In this document: in pieces, positions 46,884 through 56,686 of the stretch
Position numbering within the stretch: the stretch's first letter is position 1
Layout: each line of letters opens with the position of its first letter
NCBI GenBank assembly: GCA_902575965.1
Contig: CACGTM010000003.1
Coordinates: 20,660 to 84,659 of the forward strand
Length of the DNA: 64,000 nt
DNA from: an uncultured Alphaproteobacteria bacterium
GTDB lineage: Bacteria; Pseudomonadota; Alphaproteobacteria; Rhodospirillales; Rhodospirillaceae
Reading direction: 5' to 3'
Position numbers and translations under genes: made by a program
Notes under the pieces: model-generated
The model's database searches: none
What the model was told of the DNA's origin: nothing
Seen by the model: only the letters and a program-made list of their open reading frames with translations

Positions 46884-46959
46884 GATCCCGTAGTTAAACT
46901 GGATATAACCAAGGATTCCTAATCCTTAATTCTGAGTTCGAGTCTCGGCGGGATCACCA
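46884..46959 (+). tRNA. tRNA-Arg (anticodon CCT), CCA encoded
   Basis: The sequence is GATCCCGTAGTTAAACTGGATATAACCAAGGATTCCTAATCCTTAATTCTGAGTTCGAGTCTCGGCGGGATCACCA. It has a 7-bp acceptor stem, an anticodon stem AAGGA/TCCTT with loop TTCCTAA, and a T arm CTGAG-TTCGAGT-CTCGG. Confidence 0.9.
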
Positions 46960-46977
46960 CTTTTTTCCAATAAAATC

Positions 46978-47014
46978 AACCACTTACACAGCATTCAGTG
47001 TAAGTGGTTTTTTC
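46978..47014 (+). terminator. Intrinsic terminator downstream of tRNA-Arg
   Basis: A perfect 11-bp stem (AACCACTTACA / TGTAAGTGGTT) with a 10-nt loop runs into a T tract (GGTTTTTTC). Confidence 0.6.
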
Positions 47015-47019
47015 TTAAA

Positions 47020-47031
47020 AAATCCGAACAC
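47020..47031 (+). repeat. AAATCCGAACAC motif, left inner end of the island
   Basis: This 12-mer also occurs twice in tandem at 56368-56391. The extended match is TTAAAAA(A)TCCGAACAC. Confidence 0.7.
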
Positions 47032-47105
47032 TTTGTGGACAGTGTGATGACACTCAGTCAGATAAATTACTTTTCTTTTAAAATACCCTCTGGCAAAATC
47101 ATTAT

Positions 47106-47498
47106 ATGAAGAAACTCATTACCACACTTACACTTCTCCTGATGTTCTCATCACCTTCCTATGCGGAATGGGAGAGAGTGACTAAAAATACAGATGGAGA
47201 CACCTTCTATGTAGATTTTGACAGAATCAGGAAAGTGGATGGTTTCGTATATTATTGGGTGTTGCACGATTACTTGAAACCAGAGTCAAATGGAAACTTT
47301 TCTGGCAAAGGATATTATCAAGCGGACTGTAAGTTGTTTGGGTTCAAGATATTGAGTTTCTCGTTTCACACTCAACCAATGGGGAACGGAAAACCTCGTG
47401 CAAGTTTACCTTATAAATCGAAAGAATCGAAAAAATGGATAAACCCTCCTCCTAACTCTGGGAGTGAAACTCTCTTAAACGCAGTCTGTAATCGGTGA
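47106..47498 (+). CDS. Small secreted protein, surface-adhesin-E-like (paralog 1)
   Basis: The signal peptide is MKKLITTLTLLLMFSSPSYA. The mature part (EW.RV....G..FYVDFDRIRKVDGFVYYW...DC......NAVC) resembles the Adhesin_E family pattern, including a Cys pair. The family call is from memory. Confidence 0.5.
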   Translation: MKKLITTLTLLLMFSSPSYAEWERVTKNTDGDTFYVDFDRIRKVDGFVYYWVLHDYLKPESNGNFSGKGYYQADCKLFGFKILSFSFHTQPMGNGKPRASLPYKSKESKKWINPPPNSGSETLLNAVCNR

Positions 47499-47506
47499 AA
47501 GAAGTT

Positions 47507-47731
47507 ATGAAGAAACTGATTACCGCACTTACACTTCTAATAATGTTCTCCACACCTTCCTATGCGGAATGGAAGAGAGTGGGTAACACTACAAATGGAG
47601 ACTCATTCTATGTTGATTTTGACAGAATCAGAAAAGTTGATGGTTTTGTGTATTGGTGGCAGGTGACTGATTTCCTGAAACCAGATTACCGTGGGGACTT
47701 TTCATATAAAGCATATAGAAAAGGAGAGTAG
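47507..47731 (+). CDS. Truncated tandem paralog of the preceding secreted protein
   Basis: The signal peptide and first ~55 mature residues are near-identical to paralog 1 (MKKLITALTLLIMFSTPSYAEWKRVGNTTNGDSFYVDFDRIRKVDGFVYWW). It stops after 74 aa and lacks the Cys-containing C-terminal half. Confidence 0.45.
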   Translation: MKKLITALTLLIMFSTPSYAEWKRVGNTTNGDSFYVDFDRIRKVDGFVYWWQVTDFLKPDYRGDFSYKAYRKGE

Positions 47732-47733
47732 TC

Positions 47734-48261
47734 ATGTCAGATGACAAGAAGATGAGTCAAGAGGAACTTGAAAAACTATTTGGCAAAGGAACAATCCTTT
47801 TTAACCAGGCGCCATCAGATAAAAACCAGACGAATGAATCCAAATTTATAGAAGATCATGAGTCTATATTTAAAAAATTATTTGTTGATGATGCTTCAGA
47901 TGATATTGATTTTTCTAATTATTATAATTTCGGTAAAATTTATGTATTAAATCCCTCAGATGCAAGAGAAGTTGAGGTATATACCTCTCAAACAGATAAT
48001 ATGACTACTACTTGGGTGTCAGAAAAACACTTTTGTGTGTGTAGAGTGCCGTTTAAAAAAAATACGTATCTTTTATTTTGTATAGACTGGGATGATAATT
48101 TTGGGTGTTGGACTAGATATTCTTGTTGTGCTGTTGAGGGAGAGAGTTCTTATGAAAGTGCTGAAAAAGAACTTTTAAATAATTATTATGAAAAAAATAT
48201 AAAAAATTCTGGAGATGGACGAAGCAAATGGAGTAGGTTTTTAAAAAGTCTTAAGAAATAA
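47734..48261 (+). CDS. Hypothetical Cys-rich protein (175 aa), no recognised family
   Basis: It starts 2 nt after the upstream stop. It has an acidic N-terminal half and a Cys cluster (HFCVCRVPF...LFCIDWDDNFGCWTRYSCCAVEG). Confidence 0.5.
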   Translation: MSDDKKMSQEELEKLFGKGTILFNQAPSDKNQTNESKFIEDHESIFKKLFVDDASDDIDFSNYYNFGKIYVLNPSDAREVEVYTSQTDNMTTTWVSEKHFCVCRVPFKKNTYLLFCIDWDDNFGCWTRYSCCAVEGESSYESAEKELLNNYYEKNIKNSGDGRSKWSRFLKSLKK

Positions 48262-48320
48262 CCGAAAAAAATTGAACGGGTTTAAATTAAAAAAAATATA
48301 CTTTTTAGGATACTGCATTA

Positions 48321-49892
48321 ATGAAAAATAAAACAAAAAATAATGAAGATATGATTGGTGCTCTATGGAAATCAGCGAATAAACTTCGCGATCAAATGGA
48401 TGCTGCAGAATATAAGCATATAGTACTAGGTTTGATTTTTCTAAAATATATTTCGGACTCTTTTTTAGAACAAAAGGAAAAGATTAAAAAAATAGTTACC
48501 AACCCAGAATCAGATTATTTTATAAGTGAGAATATAACTGATATTAATGAAAAAGATTTAGAGGATCGAGACTATTATACTAAAGATAATATCTTTTGGG
48601 TTCCTGAATCCGCAAGATGGGAAACTATAAGAAATCAAGCAAAACAATCTGATATAGGTTCAATTATTGATCGTGCCTTGGGTGAATTAGAAGGTAAAAA
48701 CAGGTCTCTAAAAGGTAAGTTAGATAAACGTTTTGGTAGAACACAACTTCAGGAAGGAAGGTTGGGTGAACTTATTGATGTTATTTCAACTATTGGTTTT
48801 TCTGATAAGCAAAAGGCAGGTGATATATTAGGTGAAGTCTATGAATACTTCCTTGGTCAATTTGCAACTCAAGAAGGTAAGAAAGGAGGTCAGTTTTATA
48901 CACCTAGGCATATAGTTAAAATTCTTGTTGAGGTTATATCTCCTCTTAAAGGGAGAGTTTATGACCCTTGTTGCGGTTCGGGCGGAATGTTTGTGCAAAG
49001 TGAGTCGTTTGTTAACGCGCACGGTGGTCGAAGGGATGATATTTCCATCTATGGGCAGGAGAGCAATCCAACTACTTGGCGATTAGTTGCAATGAACTTG
49101 GCAATTAGAGGTATCGCTGCTGACTTGGGTAAAGAACCCGCAGACACCTTTGCCCGTGACCAGTTTCCGGATGTGAAGTTCGACTACATCATGGCAAATC
49201 CACCCTTCAACATCTCTGACTGGGGTGGCGAGAAATACGAGAGTGACCCCCGTTGGCAGTTCGGTAGACCCCCAGTAGGCAATGCGAACTACGCATGGTT
49301 GCAACACATGTTGTGGAAATTGCGCCCGGGCGGTCAGGCAGGGGTTGTTCTTGCAAACGGTTCGATGAGTTCCAATACCGGTGGTGAAGGACAGATACGT
49401 GAAGCAATGGTGCGAGGTGACGTGGTTGAGGTCATGGTCGCATTGCCCGGTCAGTTGTTCCTGAATACGCAGATTCCTGTGTGTCTCTGGTTCCTCACCA
49501 ACGACAAGACAATGAACGGACGAGACCGCAGAGGTGAAACTCTGTTCATTGATGCACGGCAGTTGGGAACCATGGATACCCGTGTTCTTAAGGTCTTCAC
49601 CGATGAGGACATCGCAAAGATTCAAGAGATTGTTCAGTCTTGGAAGACGGGTGAAGATTACGAGGACATTGCGGGGTTCTGTAAGTCAGCGTCTTTGGAA
49701 GAGATTGAGAAGAATGGGTTCATATTAACGCCCGGAAGATACTGCGGTTCTGCAGAATCGTCAGTGAACGAAGAGGAGTTCCTCTCCGTCTTTGAGGCAC
49801 TGACATCTCAACTTAAAAATCAAAGAGAAATCTCATCACAACTGGATAGTGAAATTGAACGCAACCTAAGCGCACTGAGAGGTTCATCGTGA
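48321..49892 (+). CDS. hsdM: Type I restriction-modification system, N6-adenine DNA methyltransferase subunit
   Basis: It has an HsdM N-terminal domain (LWKSANKLRD...YKHIVLGLIFLKYISD), motif I (VYDPCCGSGGMF) and motif IV (NPPFN). Confidence 0.95.
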   Translation: MKNKTKNNEDMIGALWKSANKLRDQMDAAEYKHIVLGLIFLKYISDSFLEQKEKIKKIVTNPESDYFISENITDINEKDLEDRDYYTKDNIFWVPESARWETIRNQAKQSDIGSIIDRALGELEGKNRSLKGKLDKRFGRTQLQEGRLGELIDVISTIGFSDKQKAGDILGEVYEYFLGQFATQEGKKGGQFYTPRHIVKILVEVISPLKGRVYDPCCGSGGMFVQSESFVNAHGGRRDDISIYGQESNPTTWRLVAMNLAIRGIAADLGKEPADTFARDQFPDVKFDYIMANPPFNISDWGGEKYESDPRWQFGRPPVGNANYAWLQHMLWKLRPGGQAGVVLANGSMSSNTGGEGQIREAMVRGDVVEVMVALPGQLFLNTQIPVCLWFLTNDKTMNGRDRRGETLFIDARQLGTMDTRVLKVFTDEDIAKIQEIVQSWKTGEDYEDIAGFCKSASLEEIEKNGFILTPGRYCGSAESSVNEEEFLSVFEALTSQLKNQREISSQLDSEIERNLSALRGSS

Positions 49893-49893
49893 A

Positions 49894-51174
49894 ATGACGC
49901 TGCAGTCGCTCAACGAACTAATAGAAAAAGTTATAGACAATCGTGGGAAAACTCCGCCCCTTTCAGAGGTGCCTACGGAATATCCGTTAATCGAGGTAAA
50001 TGCGGTTCGAGGATCATCGCCGATTCCAAACAGATCGGTGTTTTCTAAGTGGGTCAGCAAAGATACTTATGGCAGTTGGTTCCGGAGCGGTCACCCCCAA
50101 CCCGGAGATGTATTAACTAGCACTGTGGGTTCTATAGGTGAATTTGCACTGCATGATGGCGAAGGAGCAATAGCGCAAAACATAGTCGGTCTGCGCTTTG
50201 ATCCTGCGAAATGCCACCCCAAATATGCTTATTACCTCTTCACAAATCCCACTAATAGAGAGCGAGTCAAAAACTTAGACATCAGTTCTGTTCAACCCAG
50301 CGTCAAAGTACCTCATCTCTTGTCGCTAGAGTTTGATTTGCCGCTTATCTCCGACCAAAAAGCAATTGCTCACATCCTTGGCACCCTTGACGATAAGATC
50401 GAACTAAACAAAAAAATAAACCAAACCCTTGAAGACATCGCCAAGGCAATCTTCAAGTCATGGTTTGTGGACTTTGATCCCGTGCGAGCAAAGGCAGAGG
50501 GTCGCCCCACAGTTCTTCCCCCTGAAATCAGTGACCTGTTTCCTGAGGAGTTGGTGGATTCGGAGATTGGGGAGATTCCGAAGGGATGGAACGTTGGGGC
50601 ACTATCAGATGTCGCTGACATTACTATGGGACAGTCACCGCCCGGAGATACCTACAACGATAATGGCGTTGGACTACCCTTTTACCAAGGCAGCACTGAT
50701 TTTGGATTTAGATTTCCGTCACTGAGAAAATACTGCTCAGAACCCAAACGACTCGCAGATGCAGATGATGTGTTAATTAGTGTCAGGGCACCTGTAGGTG
50801 ATCTGAATCGTGCAAAAGACGATTGTTGTATCGGACGAGGGTTAGCGTCATTGCGAGCGAAAAATTCGCTGCAAACTTGGGTTTTTTACAGATGCAAATT
50901 TCTGTCTCAGCAATTGGAAACATTCAACTCTGAGGGCACAGTATTCGGTTCGATTAACGGAAAGGACTTGAAGGGTCTTCCAACTATTCTTCCGCCTGAG
51001 GTCTTGTGCAAGGCGTTCGATGAAATTGGTAAACCGATGGATGACGCTGTGAGAAACAGAACTTTGGAAATCGAAGTTTTAACTGAACTCAGAGACACAC
51101 TCCTGCCCAAACTCATCTCCGGTGAACTCCGCATCCCTGACGCAGAGAAGTTCCTTGAAGAGGCGGGTATCTGA
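49894..51174 (+). CDS. hsdS: Type I R-M specificity subunit, copy 1
   Basis: 426 aa with two target-recognition domains. These are separated by the conserved helical spacer (ILGTLDDKIELNKKINQTLEDIAKAIFKSWFVDFDPVR) and followed by the C-terminal conserved helix (LTELRDTLLPKLISGELRI). It starts 1 nt after the hsdM stop. Confidence 0.9.
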   Translation: MTLQSLNELIEKVIDNRGKTPPLSEVPTEYPLIEVNAVRGSSPIPNRSVFSKWVSKDTYGSWFRSGHPQPGDVLTSTVGSIGEFALHDGEGAIAQNIVGLRFDPAKCHPKYAYYLFTNPTNRERVKNLDISSVQPSVKVPHLLSLEFDLPLISDQKAIAHILGTLDDKIELNKKINQTLEDIAKAIFKSWFVDFDPVRAKAEGRPTVLPPEISDLFPEELVDSEIGEIPKGWNVGALSDVADITMGQSPPGDTYNDNGVGLPFYQGSTDFGFRFPSLRKYCSEPKRLADADDVLISVRAPVGDLNRAKDDCCIGRGLASLRAKNSLQTWVFYRCKFLSQQLETFNSEGTVFGSINGKDLKGLPTILPPEVLCKAFDEIGKPMDDAVRNRTLEIEVLTELRDTLLPKLISGELRIPDAEKFLEEAGI

Positions 51175-51182
51175 TGGCGTTG
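50536..51182 (+). repeat. 647-bp perfect direct repeat, copy 1 (TRD2 plus the hsdS 3' end plus 8 nt past the stop)
   Basis: My base-by-base visual comparison with 51822-52468 (offset 1286) found no mismatch. Confidence 0.85.
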
Positions 51183-52460
51183 GTAACCGAAGATAAATAC
51201 GTTCACAGTCTATCTGACGTAATTAACTTAATTGGAGGCGGCACTCCCAAACGTTCAATCAGTGAATATTGGAATGGCGATATACCATGGTTATCTGTTA
51301 AAGATTTTAACCATGGCGGCAGGTATGTTGAAGAATCTGATGAAACCATTACCCAACTGGGACTGAAGAAGAGTAGCACTAAATTATTAAAACCTGGAAT
51401 GCTAATAATTTCAGCGAGAGGCACAGTTGGTGAACTCGCACAACTTAAGACTGAAATGGCATTTAACCAATCCTGTTACGGCATAGATGCAAAGACGCAA
51501 TACCTTGATAATAACTATCTATATTATCTGCTCAAATTAAAGATAAGAGAATTAAAGTCGATCGCTCACGGGTCTGTTTTTGACACAATAACAAGAGACA
51601 CTTTTGAAAATATTGAAGTCGAGATTCCCAGCAAATATGACCAAGAAGCAATCGTCCACATCCTTGGCAGTCTAGACGATAAGATCGAACTCAACCAAAA
51701 GATGACCCAAACGCTTGAGGAGATCGCCAAGGCAATCTTTAAGTCATGGTTTGTGGATTTTGATCCCGTGCGTGCAAAGGCAGAGGGTCTTCCCACACGT
51801 CTTCCCCCTGAAATCAGTGATCTGTTTCCTGAGGAGTTGGTGGATTCGGAGATTGGGGAGATTCCGAAGGGATGGAACGTTGGGGCACTATCAGATGTCG
51901 CTGACATTACTATGGGACAGTCACCGCCCGGAGATACCTACAACGATAATGGCGTTGGACTACCCTTTTACCAAGGCAGCACTGATTTTGGATTTAGATT
52001 TCCGTCACTGAGAAAATACTGCTCAGAACCCAAACGACTCGCAGATGCAGATGATGTGTTAATTAGTGTCAGGGCACCTGTAGGTGATCTGAATCGTGCA
52101 AAAGACGATTGTTGTATCGGACGAGGGTTAGCGTCATTGCGAGCGAAAAATTCGCTGCAAACTTGGGTTTTTTACAGATGCAAATTTCTGTCTCAGCAAT
52201 TGGAAACATTCAACTCTGAGGGCACAGTATTCGGTTCGATTAACGGAAAGGACTTGAAGGGTCTTCCAACTATTCTTCCGCCTGAGGTCTTGTGCAAGGC
52301 GTTCGATGAAATTGGTAAACCGATGGATGACGCTGTGAGAAACAGAACTTTGGAAATCGAAGTTTTAACTGAACTCAGAGACACACTCCTGCCCAAACTC
52401 ATCTCCGGTGAACTCCGCATCCCTGACGCAGAGAAGTTCCTTGAAGAGGCGGGTATCTGA
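51174..52460 (+). CDS. hsdS: Type I R-M specificity subunit, copy 2 (different TRD1, identical TRD2)
   Basis: 428 aa. The N-terminal TRD is unrelated to copy 1. From LFPEELVDSEIGE to the C-terminus it is 100% identical to copy 1. It has TGATG start/stop overlaps on both sides. Confidence 0.9.
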   Translation: MALVTEDKYVHSLSDVINLIGGGTPKRSISEYWNGDIPWLSVKDFNHGGRYVEESDETITQLGLKKSSTKLLKPGMLIISARGTVGELAQLKTEMAFNQSCYGIDAKTQYLDNNYLYYLLKLKIRELKSIAHGSVFDTITRDTFENIEVEIPSKYDQEAIVHILGSLDDKIELNQKMTQTLEEIAKAIFKSWFVDFDPVRAKAEGLPTRLPPEISDLFPEELVDSEIGEIPKGWNVGALSDVADITMGQSPPGDTYNDNGVGLPFYQGSTDFGFRFPSLRKYCSEPKRLADADDVLISVRAPVGDLNRAKDDCCIGRGLASLRAKNSLQTWVFYRCKFLSQQLETFNSEGTVFGSINGKDLKGLPTILPPEVLCKAFDEIGKPMDDAVRNRTLEIEVLTELRDTLLPKLISGELRIPDAEKFLEEAGI

Positions 52461-52468
52461 TGGCGTTG
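51822..52468 (+). repeat. 647-bp perfect direct repeat, copy 2
   Basis: It is identical to 50536-51182. Near-identity continues for 12 more nt into hsdR with one mismatch. Confidence 0.85.
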
Positions 52469-55400
52469 ATAACCGAAGATCAAGTTGAACTGCAGAGTAT
52501 CGAATGGTTCAAAGACCTTGGTTACCAGTACGTTTGTGGGTATGACATTGCGGTTGATGGAGAGACACCAGAACGCACCGACTACCGCTCAGTAGTCCTT
52601 AAAGATCGACTGCTCTCTGCACTGACCCGGATCAATCCAGATATTCCTAAGTCAGCGATAGACACTGCTCTGTCTCAACTGATGAACCCCAACATCCCTG
52701 CCCTCATGTCGTGCAATCGACAGGTGCATTCGTGGTTAACCAAAGGAGTGAAGGTCACCTATCAGGAAGGTAACGAGACCGTTGGTAAGCAACTCAAGGT
52801 CATCGACTTCGATAATCCTGAGAACAACGACTGGTTGGTAGTGAATCAATTCACCATTCACGGTCAGAAACCCAGAAGACCAGACATTATAGTTTTTATA
52901 AATGGACTGCCTCTTGGAGTTATAGAACTTAAAAATCCTGCTGATGTAAATGCAGATATTTGGTCTGCTTTTAATCAACTTGAAACTTATAAAGAAGATA
53001 TTCCTGATTTGTTTAATTCAAATGGAGTCTTAGTAATATCTGATGGTGTACAGGCACGTATGGGTTCCATTACAGCATCACAAGAAAGGTTTATGAGGTG
53101 GAGAACGATCGATGGCGAAACTGTGGATCCTTTGGGTTCCTATCAAGATCTAGAAACTTTAATTAGAGGACTATTTAGTAAAGAAACATTTCTAAACTTT
53201 ATTAGATATTTTTGTATCTTTGAAAGTAAAGAAAACATCATTAAGAAGATTGCTGGGTATCATCAGTTTTACGCTGTTCAAAAAGCACATGAGAAAATAG
53301 TTGATGCATCAAAAATAGACGGAAGCAAAAAAGGTGGTGTGGTGTGGCACACCCAAGGTGCGGGAAAAAGTTTAGAAATGACCTGTCTTGCAGGTAGGAT
53401 AATCTCTGATCCCCGATTAAAAAACCCAACCATAGTTATGATAACGGACCGACAAGATTTAGATGGACAATTATTTGGGGTCTTTAATGATGCTGGTAAT
53501 TTATTGGGGGAAGAACCTAAACAAGCAGACACTATTAAAGACCTAAAAGACCTTCTTTTGAATAGACCTTCTGGTGGAATTATCTTTACTACCATTCAAA
53601 AATTTAAACCTGATAAAACTGAAGAAAAATTTCCCGTATTAACTGACCGTCATAACGTTATAGTAATGTGTGATGAGGCACACAGAACTCAATACGGATT
53701 CAAAGGTGTTATTGACCAAAAGACAGGTCAAATTAGGTATGGTTTGGCGCGTGCATTAAGAGATGGTCTTCCCAATGCAACCTTTATTGCTTTTACAGGG
53801 ACGCCAATTTCTCAGGATGACAGAGATACGCAAGCAGTCTTTGGTGAGTATGTCGATGTCTATGACATTCAACAAGCAGTTGAAGATGGCGCGACGGTTC
53901 CTATCTATTATGAGTCGCGACTTGCTAAGATAAAAATAGATGAATCCAAATTACCCGAGATTGACGAAGAAGTAGAAGAAATATTCGAAGATGGAATTGA
54001 AGATTATGAACAGCAAGAAAAAGCAAAAATTAAATGGTCACAAATTGAAGCATTGGTAGGGGCACAACCAAGATTAAAAGAAGTTGCAGAGGATATTATT
54101 GAACATTTTCACATACGGCAAAAGACACAACCAGGAAAGGCACTGATTGTTGGAATGAGTCGTGATATTTGTGCTCGTCTTTATGATGAATTGATCAAGA
54201 TAAAACCTCAATGGGGAAATGATGATCATAATTCAGGTGTAATTAAAGTAGTGATGACGGCATCTGCAAGTGACGAAAAATATTTACAGAAGCATAATAC
54301 GTCTAAACAGCAGAAAAAAGATTTAGAAAAAAGATTTAAAGATCCTTCTGATGAATTACAAATAGTAATCGTTCGAGATATGTGGTTAACAGGTTTTGAT
54401 GCGCCATGTTTATCGACAATGTATGTTGATAAACCAATGAAGGGAGCAAACCTGGCACAAGCAATTGCTAGGGTAAACAGGGTTTTCGCTGATAAACCTG
54501 GTGGTTTAATAGTCGATTACATCGGCATTGCACCCCAACTTAAAGATGCACTGGCAACGTATAGTGCAAGCAAAGGCAGAGGAAAACCAACTATTGATGC
54601 AGACGAGGCACTTAATTTGCTCAAAGAGAAATTAGATGTTGCAAGAGATTTGCTTTATCCTGTTAACTGGTCAGAATATCAAACAAAAGCACTTCAACTT
54701 TTGCCTGAGTGTATCGAACATATCTTAGAATTAGAAGATGGAAGAAAAAGATACTGTGATGTAGTTTTACAAATGACTAAAGCATTTGCTTTATGCGGCG
54801 CTATGGATGATGCTTTAGTTTTTGCAGAAGAAGTTGCATTTCATCAAGCGATTAGAGCGCCACTCATCAAGACAGCGAGAAAAGGTGGAAGAGGTCAGTT
54901 CAAAGACACCGATTTTGAACTTAAACAATTAGTTTCTGAGTCACTTGTGTCAAGTGGGGTCACAGACTTGTTTGAGGTTGCAGGAATAAAAACCCCGGAT
55001 ATTTCAATTCTTTCTGACGAATTTTTAGCAGAAGTACAAAAAATAAAATATAAAAATGTTGCGGTAGAGTTATTAAATAAATTGCTTAATGATGAAGTGA
55101 AGTCAAAGTTTCGAACAAATATGGTCAAGCAAAAAAAATTCAGTGATCGACTTAAGGTTTCTCTTTCTAAATATCAAAATAGATCTATTGAAGCAGCGCA
55201 GGTTATTGCCGAACTGATTGAAATGGCAAAAGACTTTAAGAATGATTTAGAAAAGTCAAAAGAACTCAATTTAAGTCCGGACGAAAATGCTTTTTATGAT
55301 GCACTTTGTAATAATAAGTCTGCGGAAGAACTTATGGGTGAGGATGTTCTTATACAAATTGCTAGAGAGATTTCTGAGAAATTAAGACAAAATGTGACTG

Positions 55401-55561
55401 TTGATTGGTCTCAAAGAGAGTCTGTCCGTGCAAGACTGAGGTTATTGGTGAAAAATCTCCTTAGAAGATATAAATACCCACCCGATGACCAAGATGAGGC
55501 AACTAAGTTAATTTTATCTCAGGCAGAAGTAATTTCAGAAAACATGCTGTCCAATAATTAA
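52460..55561 (+). CDS. hsdR: Type I restriction enzyme, endonuclease/translocase subunit
   Basis: 1033 aa. It has an N-terminal PD-(D/E)xK-like region (RPDIIVFINGLPLGVIELK), helicase motif I (HTQGAGKS), a DEAH box (MCDEAHRTQ), FTGTP and a later QAIARVNR. Confidence 0.95.
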   Translation: MALITEDQVELQSIEWFKDLGYQYVCGYDIAVDGETPERTDYRSVVLKDRLLSALTRINPDIPKSAIDTALSQLMNPNIPALMSCNRQVHSWLTKGVKVTYQEGNETVGKQLKVIDFDNPENNDWLVVNQFTIHGQKPRRPDIIVFINGLPLGVIELKNPADVNADIWSAFNQLETYKEDIPDLFNSNGVLVISDGVQARMGSITASQERFMRWRTIDGETVDPLGSYQDLETLIRGLFSKETFLNFIRYFCIFESKENIIKKIAGYHQFYAVQKAHEKIVDASKIDGSKKGGVVWHTQGAGKSLEMTCLAGRIISDPRLKNPTIVMITDRQDLDGQLFGVFNDAGNLLGEEPKQADTIKDLKDLLLNRPSGGIIFTTIQKFKPDKTEEKFPVLTDRHNVIVMCDEAHRTQYGFKGVIDQKTGQIRYGLARALRDGLPNATFIAFTGTPISQDDRDTQAVFGEYVDVYDIQQAVEDGATVPIYYESRLAKIKIDESKLPEIDEEVEEIFEDGIEDYEQQEKAKIKWSQIEALVGAQPRLKEVAEDIIEHFHIRQKTQPGKALIVGMSRDICARLYDELIKIKPQWGNDDHNSGVIKVVMTASASDEKYLQKHNTSKQQKKDLEKRFKDPSDELQIVIVRDMWLTGFDAPCLSTMYVDKPMKGANLAQAIARVNRVFADKPGGLIVDYIGIAPQLKDALATYSASKGRGKPTIDADEALNLLKEKLDVARDLLYPVNWSEYQTKALQLLPECIEHILELEDGRKRYCDVVLQMTKAFALCGAMDDALVFAEEVAFHQAIRAPLIKTARKGGRGQFKDTDFELKQLVSESLVSSGVTDLFEVAGIKTPDISILSDEFLAEVQKIKYKNVAVELLNKLLNDEVKSKFRTNMVKQKKFSDRLKVSLSKYQNRSIEAAQVIAELIEMAKDFKNDLEKSKELNLSPDENAFYDALCNNKSAEELMGEDVLIQIAREISEKLRQNVTVDWSQRESVRARLRLLVKNLLRRYKYPPDDQDEATKLILSQAEVISENMLSNN

Positions 55562-55653
55562 AAAGTTTTTAGAATATTGAAAAAGGACAGACAAATATGA
55601 TTAAGTAATAACTTGAATGTGTTTAAATAAAAAATTTCTACAAGGTTAGTAAC

Positions 55654-56328
55654 TTGATAATTTATCTTATTTTATTATTTATTTATTTTTCTCCAATAAT
55701 TTGGTTTAATTTCATCTTCAACAAGTATGATAAAATCCTAGAAAATATGCCCTTCAATGGGTTGGAGTTTGGAGAGCAAATTCTAAAAGAAAATAATCTA
55801 AATGATGTTGCTATAGAAGTAACGGACAAAGGGGACCACTATGACCCAAATGAGAAAAAAGTTAAAGTTAAGCAAGAGAGATTAGACAATAAAAGTATTA
55901 CTGCTATTTCCGTAGTTTGTCACGAAATTGGACATGCTATCCAAGATAATGAAAATTACAAACCTCTTGAGAGAAGACAAAAATTACTCAAGAGAACAGC
56001 ATGGGTTTCTTGGTTGGGGAGAGGAATTATTTTCATAGGACTGCCAGCAATTTTTGCCACTGGTTTATTTCCTCTTATTAGAGTTTGTATAATTCTAGTT
56101 ATATTGAGTATTGTAATAGATGTATTAATACATTTAGTTACATTACATGTAGAAATCGATGCAAGTTTTAATAGAGCATTGCCAATTCTAAAACAAAAAA
56201 TTCCCCCCGAATATCACAAGGAATGTAGATCTGTTTTAAGAGCAGCAGCATATACTTATGTAATTTCTGCACTGAGTAAGGTTATAAATTTGAGGAATAT
56301 ATGGTTATTAATTGCGCGATTAAGATAA
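55654..56328 (+). CDS. Membrane zinc metallopeptidase, YugP-like (Zn_peptidase_2 family)
   Basis: It has an N-terminal TM helix, GDHYDP...V.V...L...SITAISVVCHEIGHAIQ (HExxH) and two C-terminal TM helices. It uses a TTG start. Confidence 0.7.
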   Translation: MIIYLILLFIYFSPIIWFNFIFNKYDKILENMPFNGLEFGEQILKENNLNDVAIEVTDKGDHYDPNEKKVKVKQERLDNKSITAISVVCHEIGHAIQDNENYKPLERRQKLLKRTAWVSWLGRGIIFIGLPAIFATGLFPLIRVCIILVILSIVIDVLIHLVTLHVEIDASFNRALPILKQKIPPEYHKECRSVLRAAAYTYVISALSKVINLRNIWLLIARLR

Positions 56329-56367
56329 GAGGGATGGATTGTTGATTATGGACATAAAATTGATTAA

Positions 56368-56391
56368 AAATCCGAACACAAATCCGAACAC
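56368..56391 (+). repeat. Two abutting AAATCCGAACAC motifs, right inner end of the island
   Basis: The sequence AAATCCGAACACAAATCCGAACAC carries the same 12-mer found at 47020-47031. Confidence 0.7.
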
Positions 56392-56472
56392 TCGTTTTTA
56401 AGGAATTTTAAAAAGTTAGATAAAGTATTGATCTTATTGCATGAAATAGGAATATACATTGAAGTCATTTTT

Positions 56473-56528
56473 TATAACAAAGGATTCCTAATCCTTAATT
56501 CTGGGTTCGAGTCCCGGCGGGATCACCA
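56473..56528 (+). repeat. Displaced 3' fragment of tRNA-Arg(CCT) (attR-like direct repeat)
   Basis: The sequence is TATAACAAAGGATTCCTAATCCTTAATTCTGGGTTCGAGTCCCGGCGGGATCACCA. It matches 46904-46959 at 53/56 positions. It has no 5' half, so it is not a functional tRNA. Confidence 0.8.
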
Positions 56529-56686
56529 TTTTTCTGCTTTTTAATACTTTAATTTAATAATTGTAAATTAATTATCAAAAATTTAATAATTATACTATTC
56601 AATATCAGATTATTTTTGGGTAAAGATTGACAGATTTAGATATTTATTTTCAGGATATATTTAGAATACTCACTAGAGGTAATATT

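Follow-up and report, generated by a model that had tools for sequence, protein, structure and literature searches.

A type I restriction-modification operon on a tRNA-Arg island of an uncultured alphaproteobacterium is a probable recombinant of a GC-rich specificity core and AT-rich gene ends

We analysed a 64,000-nucleotide stretch of contig CACGTM010000003.1 (assembly GCA_902575965.1) from an uncultured alphaproteobacterium of the Rhodospirillaceae; the whole stretch is called the window below. At positions 48321-55561 it carries the gene set hsdM-hsdS1-hsdS2-hsdR, in which a middle part rich in guanine plus cytosine (GC) lies between AT-rich gene ends. Judged from its sequence, this operon is probably a recombinant with a clade-B specificity core and clade-A ends, and we assign this reading a probability of roughly 85%. 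Both outer parts (the first ~212 codons of hsdM and codons ~146 to 1033 of hsdR) would derive from clade A, a low-GC operon lineage that occurs in genomes of low-GC marine picoplankton. The inner ~3.8-3.9 kb (the rest of hsdM, hsdS1, hsdS2, and hsdR codons 1 to ~137) would derive from clade B, with a GC content of 45-50%. The four genes are arranged as follows.

48321-49892, + strand: hsdM, intact open reading frame (ORF)
49894-51174, + strand: hsdS1, intact ORF, PF01420 Methylase_S found twice
51174-52460, + strand: hsdS2, intact ORF, PF01420 Methylase_S found in two stretches
52460-55561, + strand: hsdR, intact ORF

The first-pass annotation, made from the letters alone, had placed compositional breaks inside intact frames, and all four hsd ORFs are indeed unbroken and closely packed. 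HsdM contained PF12161 HsdM_N (E=4.6e-24) and PF02384 N6_Mtase (E=1.6e-105), with the S-adenosylmethionine (SAM) motif I VYDPCCGSGG at aa 213 and the catalytic NPPF at aa 293; its score against TIGR00497 was 161 bits, under the cut-off of 243. HsdR showed the Pfam domains PF04313, PF18766, PF22679, and PF11867 (N-terminal nuclease, SF2 helicase, and C-terminal domain), reached 628 bits against TIGR00348 (cut-off 285), and retained RRPD...ELK, GAGKS, and DEAH. Its match to the EcoR124I/II chains was limited to aa 112-479 (E ~1e-32). Both HsdS proteins had two target recognition domains (TRDs), with one conserved region between them and another after them, and their relatives differed by module. 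By these domains and motifs, the gene set is assigned to the type I restriction-modification operons. The M-S-R gene order is compatible with type IC, and we place the operon in no particular family. Promoter and terminator scans gave no informative signal over the shuffled expectation.

Composition of the window and the operon

The mean GC of the window was 0.353, and in 1-kb bins the region of 49-53 kb alone reached 0.44-0.49. Positions 48960-52900 had a GC of 0.466, compared with 0.344 ± 0.014 (maximum 0.391) in 523 other intervals of 3.94 kb. This confirms a GC-rich core in an AT-rich operon, far beyond chance. GC at third codon positions (GC3) was 0.184 in hsdM 48321-48956 and 0.543 in hsdM 49115-49889, then 0.547 in hsdR 52460-52870 and 0.251 in hsdR 52897-55558. 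Both hsdS genes showed GC3 values of 0.42-0.46, and 19 host ORFs gave 0.254 ± 0.023. The steps in GC3 were located at ~48960-49000 in hsdM and at ~52880 in hsdR.

The GC values that the first-pass annotation had counted by hand in 60-nt samples held well: five of the six equal the exact values (0.250, 0.517, 0.567, 0.417, and 0.300), and the sixth, given as about 37%, is exactly 0.350, within ~2 points. The two motifs near which it had placed the breaks, VYDPCCGSGG (48957-48986) and RPDIIVFINGLP (52877-52912), both lie on the steps. The first TRD of hsdS2 was, as claimed, less GC-rich than that of hsdS1 (0.374 and 0.466, respectively).

The GC-rich middle might in principle have arisen with no transfer at all, from amino-acid composition or from selection on the conserved catalytic and interface parts. 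GC at the first and second codon positions was slightly raised in the conserved catalytic part of hsdM, and local GC peaks of ~0.46-0.53 were visible at 49221-49400 in three low-GC loci (L009, L017, and L097). The 23 related operons that we gathered via protein searches and contig look-ups (genome GC 31%-66%), however, each had an even composition over hsdM 5', hsdM 3', hsdR 5', and hsdR 3'. In the low-GC related operons the hsdR 5' end was the GC-poorest segment, not the richest. As the step lies mainly in third codon positions (0.18 to 0.54 and 0.55 to 0.25) and the 23 operons are uniform, an explanation by amino-acid composition is rejected. The discordant relatives described below (200/200 bootstraps) also refute it, and we give it practically no weight. 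The first-pass annotation had named a similar GC shift in orthologous hsd genes as the sign that would speak against mosaicism; no such step was seen in the 23 operons, and the mosaic reading is kept.

Relatives of the four segments

The ends and the core of the operon had different closest relatives. The segments were defined as follows.

48321-48956, + strand: hsdM 5' part; clade A; GC 0.318, GC3 0.184; informative sites nearly all A; bootstrap 200/200
49115-49892, + strand: hsdM 3' part; clade B; GC 0.503, GC3 0.543; bootstrap 200/200
52460-52869, + strand: hsdR 5' part; clade B; GC 0.48, GC3 0.547; bootstrap 200/200
52897-55561, + strand: hsdR 3' part; clade A; GC 0.363, GC3 0.251; contains the catalytic ELK, GAGKS, DEAH, and the C-terminal domain

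The four segment trees, built by neighbour joining with picocyanobacterial operons as the root, placed the window with A, B, B, and A, respectively, each in 200/200 bootstraps. Protein identities gave the same pattern. HsdR aa 1-147 showed 94-96% identity to a protein set (P0183/P0185/P0186/P0193) that includes members from a Luminiphilus metagenome-assembled genome (MAG) and Pseudomonadales MAGs, and the same set reached ~69% over aa 148-1033. Over aa 148-1033 the closest set was another (P0180/P0122-P0126), with 85-86% identity, falling to 58-62% over aa 1-147. HsdM aa 1-200 was 77-79% identical to clade A and 60-65% to clade B, whereas aa 261-460 reached 95-97% with clade B and 81-85% with clade A. 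Over its final ~60 residues HsdM is hypervariable, and the best match there was 79%.

At the DNA level we compared the window with one operon of each clade, L009 (A) and L016 (B). In hsdM, identity to A and B was 0.76 and 0.63, respectively, at 48363-48956, and 0.70 and 0.92 at 49115-49740. In hsdR, it was 0.65 and 0.925 at 52460-52870, and 0.77 and 0.63 at 52897-55540. The hsdM 3' part showed 0.85-1.00 identity per 60 nt to another clade-B operon (L012), and the hsdR 5' part 0.90-0.98 to L011-L013, with 122 informative sites of B type against 9 of A type. Sliding DNA-identity profiles to A and B swapped at the compositional steps, and the informative-site strings agreed with them. L011 was tried as a donor model for hsdM and rejected, as its own hsdM diverges after aa ~330; L012, L013, and L016 were used instead.

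Unmosaic parent-like operons exist for both clades. The clade-A operons L009, L010, and L017 were low in GC throughout, and the clade-B operons L011-L016 and L098 had 0.43-0.50 throughout. The disagreement of segment trees and identities between ends and core, for which the first-pass annotation had asked, supports its claim that the core came from a higher-GC lineage: the hsdM 3' part, hsdS1, hsdS2, and hsdR up to codon ~137 are of clade B, and trees, identities, and breakpoints are discordant with the ends.

Junctions in hsdM and hsdR

Breakpoints were located by a maximum chi-square test on triplet informative sites. In hsdM the break fell at 49112/49115 with a value of 114, and in hsdR at 52869/52870 with a value of 239; in both cases 0/2000 permutations were as high. 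The breakpoint tests that the earlier reading had called for thus gave significant breaks at both ends, close to the GC steps. Between the segments lie two junctions.

48957-49114, + strand: left junction zone in hsdM; spans SAM motif I; GC 0.47; A-like and B-like sites alternate
52870-52896, + strand: right junction in hsdR, immediately 5' of the RRPD / PD-(D/E)xK segment

The left zone was 0.80 identical to A and 0.77 to B, and some of its sites were unique. The left GC step (~48960, at the start of motif I) stood ~150 nt ahead of the phylogenetic break. This zone could be due to patchy correction of heteroduplex mismatches or to an unsampled donor variant. The right junction is one codon short compared with either clade, and exact identities between the sampled A and B sequences extend there over only ~8 nt.

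hsdS modules and the tandem pair

The two hsdS genes share their second half and differ in their first half. Their modules and repeats were located as follows.

49894-50352, + strand: TRD1a of hsdS1
50353-50600, + strand: central conserved region of hsdS1
50601-51070, + strand: TRD2 of hsdS1
51071-51174, + strand: C-terminal conserved region of hsdS1
50536-51194, + strand: direct repeat copy 1, 659 nt; takes in TRD2 and the C-terminal conserved region and continues for 21 nt after the stop
51822-52480: direct repeat copy 2, the second copy of the 659-nt repeat
51174-52460, + strand: hsdS2, with codons 1-7 at 51174-51194 (MALVTED), TRD1b at 51195-51638, its own central conserved region, and the TRD2 and C-terminal region of hsdS1

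The modules of hsdS1 all had close relatives. TRD1a was 93% identical in amino acids to P0251/P0264, and TRD2 was 100% identical to P0248 and 98% to P0260. Positions 50387-51197, which cover the central conserved region, TRD2, the C-terminal region, and the hsdR start, were 95.6% identical in nucleotides to L016. The hsdM tail, TRD1a, and the central conserved region matched L098 without a break over 49100-50618 (85-97%), across the M/S boundary, and L014 matched the start of this block. The hypervariable C-terminal tail of HsdM moves together with hsdS. The relatives of TRD1a, TRD2, and TRD1b each carry different partner TRDs, and this pairing pattern is ordinary TRD reassortment.

The last 639 nt of hsdS1 and hsdS2 were 100% identical, followed by 21 nt with one mismatch. 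The start of hsdS2 has a different source. Native TRD1b-type S proteins begin with MVDQVHRLSD and clade-B HsdR begins with MALVTEDQVE, while hsdS2 begins with MALVTED-KYVHSLSD. The TGATG stop/start overlap at the hsdS1/hsdS2 junction is the same as that at the S/R junction. As its first seven codons are a copy of the clade-B hsdR start, hsdS2 arose by the joining of a TRD1b-type hsdS behind hsdR codon 7. With this start it took over the TGATG overlap by which, in this family, hsdR is coupled to the hsdS gene before it. The hsdS2 start copy (51174-51194) holds the clade-B consensus GTA (Val), and the hsdR start (52460-52480) now holds ATA (Ile).

A 9-nt stretch, GATCAAGTT, is common to clade-B hsdR codons 7-9 and to codons 3-5 of the native TRD1b-type hsdS of L015, the one such gene with its DNA read. 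A clean microhomology crossover at this stretch was considered and rejected, as the actual junction, GAT-AAATAC-GTT, is not clean; the shared stretch is a suggestion only.

TRD1b had relatives of 91-96% amino-acid identity (96% to P0275) and was 85% identical in nucleotides to L015. Its closest relatives include members on clade-B contigs. In L015 the TRD1b is also GC-poor (0.33-0.39, within an operon of 0.43-0.47), so the low GC belongs to the TRD1b module and is no evidence of a third donor. The first-pass annotation had ascribed TRD1 of hsdS2 to yet another origin because of its composition. The fusion junction does support a separate event; composition does not, since the module belongs to the pool of clade B, in which it is likewise low in GC.

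No inverted repeats of >=20 nt were detected in 47500-56500. Given this, and the lack of a recombinase reported below, the locus is not an inverting, phase-variable hsdS locus. hsdS1 and hsdS2 are placed for co-expression and would give two specificities with a common TRD2 half-site.

tRNA-Arg island

The operon lies on a small island next to a tRNA gene. The limits of the island are as follows.

46884-46959, + strand: tRNA-Arg(CCT), found by ARAGORN; island integration site, its 3' part being the island-borne copy
46904-46964: left 61-nt direct repeat, attL-like; 57/61 identical to 56473-56533 and equal to the exact L001/L002 alignment overlap
56473-56533: right 61-nt direct repeat, attR-like; partial 3' copy of tRNA-Arg
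46965-56472: island of ~9.5 kb, with an Adhesin_E-like gene, ORF175, hsdM-hsdS1-hsdS2-hsdR, and Zn_peptidase_2

The flanks outside 46965-56472 were 98.5-99.5% identical to four aligned marine metagenome or MAG contigs (L001-L003 and L005). In seven contigs (L001-L003 and L005-L008) the hsp20 gene is followed directly by the sel1 gene, and the island is absent; L004 ends at hsp20. Cluster mates of the host at 90% identity bear the labels Alphaproteobacteria bacterium TMED87 or Rhodospirillaceae bacterium. Relative to the native sequence in L001, the left tRNA copy shows two T-arm substitutions, G>A and C>T, that compensate each other, and the right copy is the native allele. Because the whole operon sits on an island that is absent from near-identical conspecific contigs, the operon itself was acquired. 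The first-pass annotation had taken it for a resident type I locus, which does not agree with its position on a ~9.5-kb tRNA-Arg(CCT) island missing from seven conspecific contigs. Its further claim of a modular swap rather than acquisition of a whole operon stands in its first half, as the core was swapped, and fails in its second, as the whole operon was also acquired on the island.

A tblastn search of the 64-kb window with three integrases from related loci gave no integrase or recombinase match at E<=1e-3. Pfam searches of the island ORFs detected no integrase, and no integrase remnant was found in the island. Either the island is immobile, or it moved with help in trans or through homology of its flanks.

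Besides the operon, the island holds a small gene of the Adhesin_E family (surface lipoprotein E-like) at 47106-47498 and ORF175 (47734-48261, 175 aa), for which neither Pfam nor NCBIfam gave a family at a useful E-value. At 46978-47009, directly after the tRNA inside the left end of the island, we observed a strong hairpin of 12 bp with a T-run behind it; it is terminator-like on both strands. ARAGORN also reported a 99-nt 'tRNA-Met' at 56430-56528, overlapping the partial tRNA-Arg copy. This call is most likely an artefact of the attR-like repeat and no gene.

Carriers and recurrence of mosaics

Clade-A relatives were found in Gammaproteobacteria MAGs, in single-amplified genomes (SAGs), and in one Ca. 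Actinomarina SAG. The latter (L017, AG-913-G17, CACPJC010000001.1) held the only close clade-A HsdR in the GTDB representatives (80% aa). Its label, compared with the gamma- and alphaproteobacterial carriers, suggests either spread across phyla among low-GC picoplankton or contamination of the SAG.

Genes for a phage-type integrase or a resolvase adjoin clade-B operons in at least three of the fetched loci (L011, L013, and L016), one of them in a Luminiphilus MAG. Two of these clade-B islands (L011 and L013) lie next to guaA/guaB, beside the GMP synthase gene (guaA). The island in L016 further includes a GmrSD-like type IV restriction gene and an AlpA-like regulator.

Mosaics of the two clades were observed outside the window as well. 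L097 (GCA_001757085.1, MDSZ01254686.1, 1110-2678) holds an independent A/B mosaic hsdM on an AT-rich contig; its sequence turns to clade B at a point equivalent to ~49260 of the window and turns back near the 3' end. Directly upstream of this hsdM lies a tyrosine-recombinase (integrase) gene. Two HsdM proteins from other assemblies (P0003 and P0004) resemble the L097 mosaic and are 87-90% identical to P0001. The hsdM of L011 (L011:5091-6638) diverged sharply from all other clade-B hsdM after aa ~330, in the part adjoining hsdS, and looks like another intragenic replacement. The mosaics in L097, P0003/P0004, and L011 indicate that exchange inside hsd genes is common in this hsd family.

Weight of the evidence

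Several observations weigh against the recombinant reading. The left boundary is a patchy zone of ~160 nt with no clean break, and at the hsdR junction the identities of ~8 nt and the lost codon fit classical RecA-dependent exchange poorly. The first-pass annotation had named homologous recombination as the mechanism; given the lost codon, the short identities, and the patchy hsdM junction, it is no more than a possible mechanism. The chimeric HsdR occurred on one contig only in the protein collection, and when JGI metagenome contigs were searched for exact copies of the hsdR and hsdS1/hsdS2 junctions, each gave 0 matches; with a single contig and no JGI match, the junctions are without independent confirmation. 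An exact look-up of the window HsdR in assemblies gave no record. In addition, the closest sampled clade-A sequence to the AT-rich ends was ~77-80% identical in nucleotides (85-86% in amino acids), so the recipient parent is absent from the sampled sequences. A scan of the GTDB representative genomes with the AT-rich part of HsdR gave one close clade-A relative (80% aa) and the rest at <=69%, and so no better recipient parent.

A rival explanation is an assembly chimera, in which reads of co-occurring clade-A and clade-B populations were joined at conserved stretches and the mosaic is present in no cell. The relatives of the window are all metagenome, MAG, or SAG sequences; the chimeric HsdR lies on a single contig, with junctions not found elsewhere; both junctions stand at conserved motifs, where graph assemblers can cross over; and the perfect 659-nt repeat is hard for short reads. 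A chimera, however, would need two joins that leave and re-enter the same AT-rich operon in frame, with four intact ORFs and all motifs kept. The ~8-nt matches of A and B at the right junction are far under an assembly k-mer, and the codon deletion occurs in neither clade. The left junction mixes A and B sites with some unique ones and shows no single switch. The hsdS1/hsdS2 junction (hsdR codons 1-7 and TRD1b) is novel sequence that must exist in reads, and a similar A/B mosaic HsdM with another breakpoint was found in three other assemblies. We consider a chimera very unlikely, and the recombinant remains the preferred reading.

Proposed history

What we infer about the direction of transfer, the number and order of events, the recombination mechanism, and the activity of the system is set out here. 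In the simplest history, a double crossover would have placed a clade-B core into a clade-A operon. The crossovers would have occurred in or beside the most conserved stretches, that is, the SAM motif I region of hsdM and the part of hsdR just before the PD-(D/E)xK segment. Clade A is more simply read as the recipient, given that the AT-rich gene ends run on into an AT-rich island (flank GC 0.29-0.35). At 92-98% identity to the clade-B DNA sampled, and with its foreign codon composition retained, the core looks like a recent import from clade B. The HsdR N-terminus probably moves by linkage to hsdS.

In a separate step, a TRD1b-type hsdS would have been joined after hsdR codon 7, giving a tandem hsdS2 that uses the hsdR start and the TGATG coupling. 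One M/R pair would then serve two S subunits that share TRD2, and the system may recognise two bipartite targets with a common half-site.

The same recombinant may also have formed elsewhere, either before the island integrated or as a clade-B operon with both ends replaced by clade A, and we put the chance of this at somewhat short of even. Under both versions, an unrecombined operon would never have been resident in this chromosome. The whole operon lies on an island that near-identical conspecific contigs lack, and the island came with a tRNA 3' end variant of its own. The carriers of clade A fall into three differently named groups (Gammaproteobacteria MAGs, a Ca. Actinomarina SAG, and the alphaproteobacterium of the window), so clade A is itself mobile, and A/B mosaics recur. 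For the timing version we found nothing against it, as the exchange is not datable relative to the integration. The reversed direction, on the other hand, needs two separate replacements, one at each end, and the AT-rich ends pass into island flanks that are AT-rich as well.

Comparison with known systems

In type I systems, exchange of TRDs and conserved modules in hsdS within a family gives new specificities, with M and R shared, and hybrid S subunits with hybrid specificities are known, as is unequal crossing-over in the central conserved region (PMC3874165). The operon in the window resembles the type IA and IC hybrids of E. coli and Salmonella in the recombination of hsdS modules (PMC3874165). 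It differs from them in that the tract reaches ~780-940 nt into hsdM and ~410 nt into hsdR, giving chimeric M and R subunits. Its parents also differ by ~35-40% in DNA and by ~12 GC points, and the tract shows as a compositional block.

In Xylella fastidiosa, hsdS alleles with shuffled TRDs lie between conserved hsdM and hsdR in M-S-R order, and that study cites earlier reports of recombination within hsdM and hsdR (10.1101/2022.09.01.506293). The exchange there is within a species, with highly conserved M and R and one hsdS per system, whereas here it involves diverged lineages, whose carriers are differently named marine bacterial groups, and two tandem hsdS genes.

Loci of the SpnD39III type, and the systems of this kind catalogued from REBASE, likewise hold several hsdS genes with shared and differing TRDs, which provide alternative specificities for one M/R set; they have inverted repeats, usually a locus recombinase, and one hsdS expressed at a time (PMC7394358). 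In the window, by contrast, two full-length hsdS genes stand in direct tandem, and the 659-nt direct repeat permits only deletion or amplification, not inversion. The island is like tRNA-integrated defence islands in its insertion at a tRNA 3' end, its direct repeats, its presence or absence among strains, and its defence cargo, and unlike them in that no integrase was found in the island or in the 64-kb window.

Significance

Recombination of hsd alleles and TRDs is already known, and the operon is a well-resolved further example that leaves the principles known for type I systems unchanged. Less common here are the strongly diverged and compositionally different parents, the chimeric M and R, and the tandem hsdS start taken from hsdR.

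It is conceivable, though we think it unlikely, that the clade-B block of hsdM 3' part, hsdS, and hsdR 5' part is a recurrent cassette that invades diverged low-GC marine operons, anchored at motif I and before the PD motif, and that co-option of the hsdR start is one regular way of stacking specificities. If this were true, specificities would spread across differently named marine groups without movement of whole systems.

The operon offers a natural example of specificity gain, in which the replacement apparently took in only the recognition core and the neighbouring stretches of the methylase and nuclease genes. As the chimeric frames of HsdM and HsdR are intact and keep their motifs, they point to positions where the subunits of different lineages might be joined in engineering. 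An extra hsdS can apparently be added by borrowing the translation start of hsdR. The finding also adds to the evidence that defence specificities circulate on small islands among abundant uncultured picoplankton.

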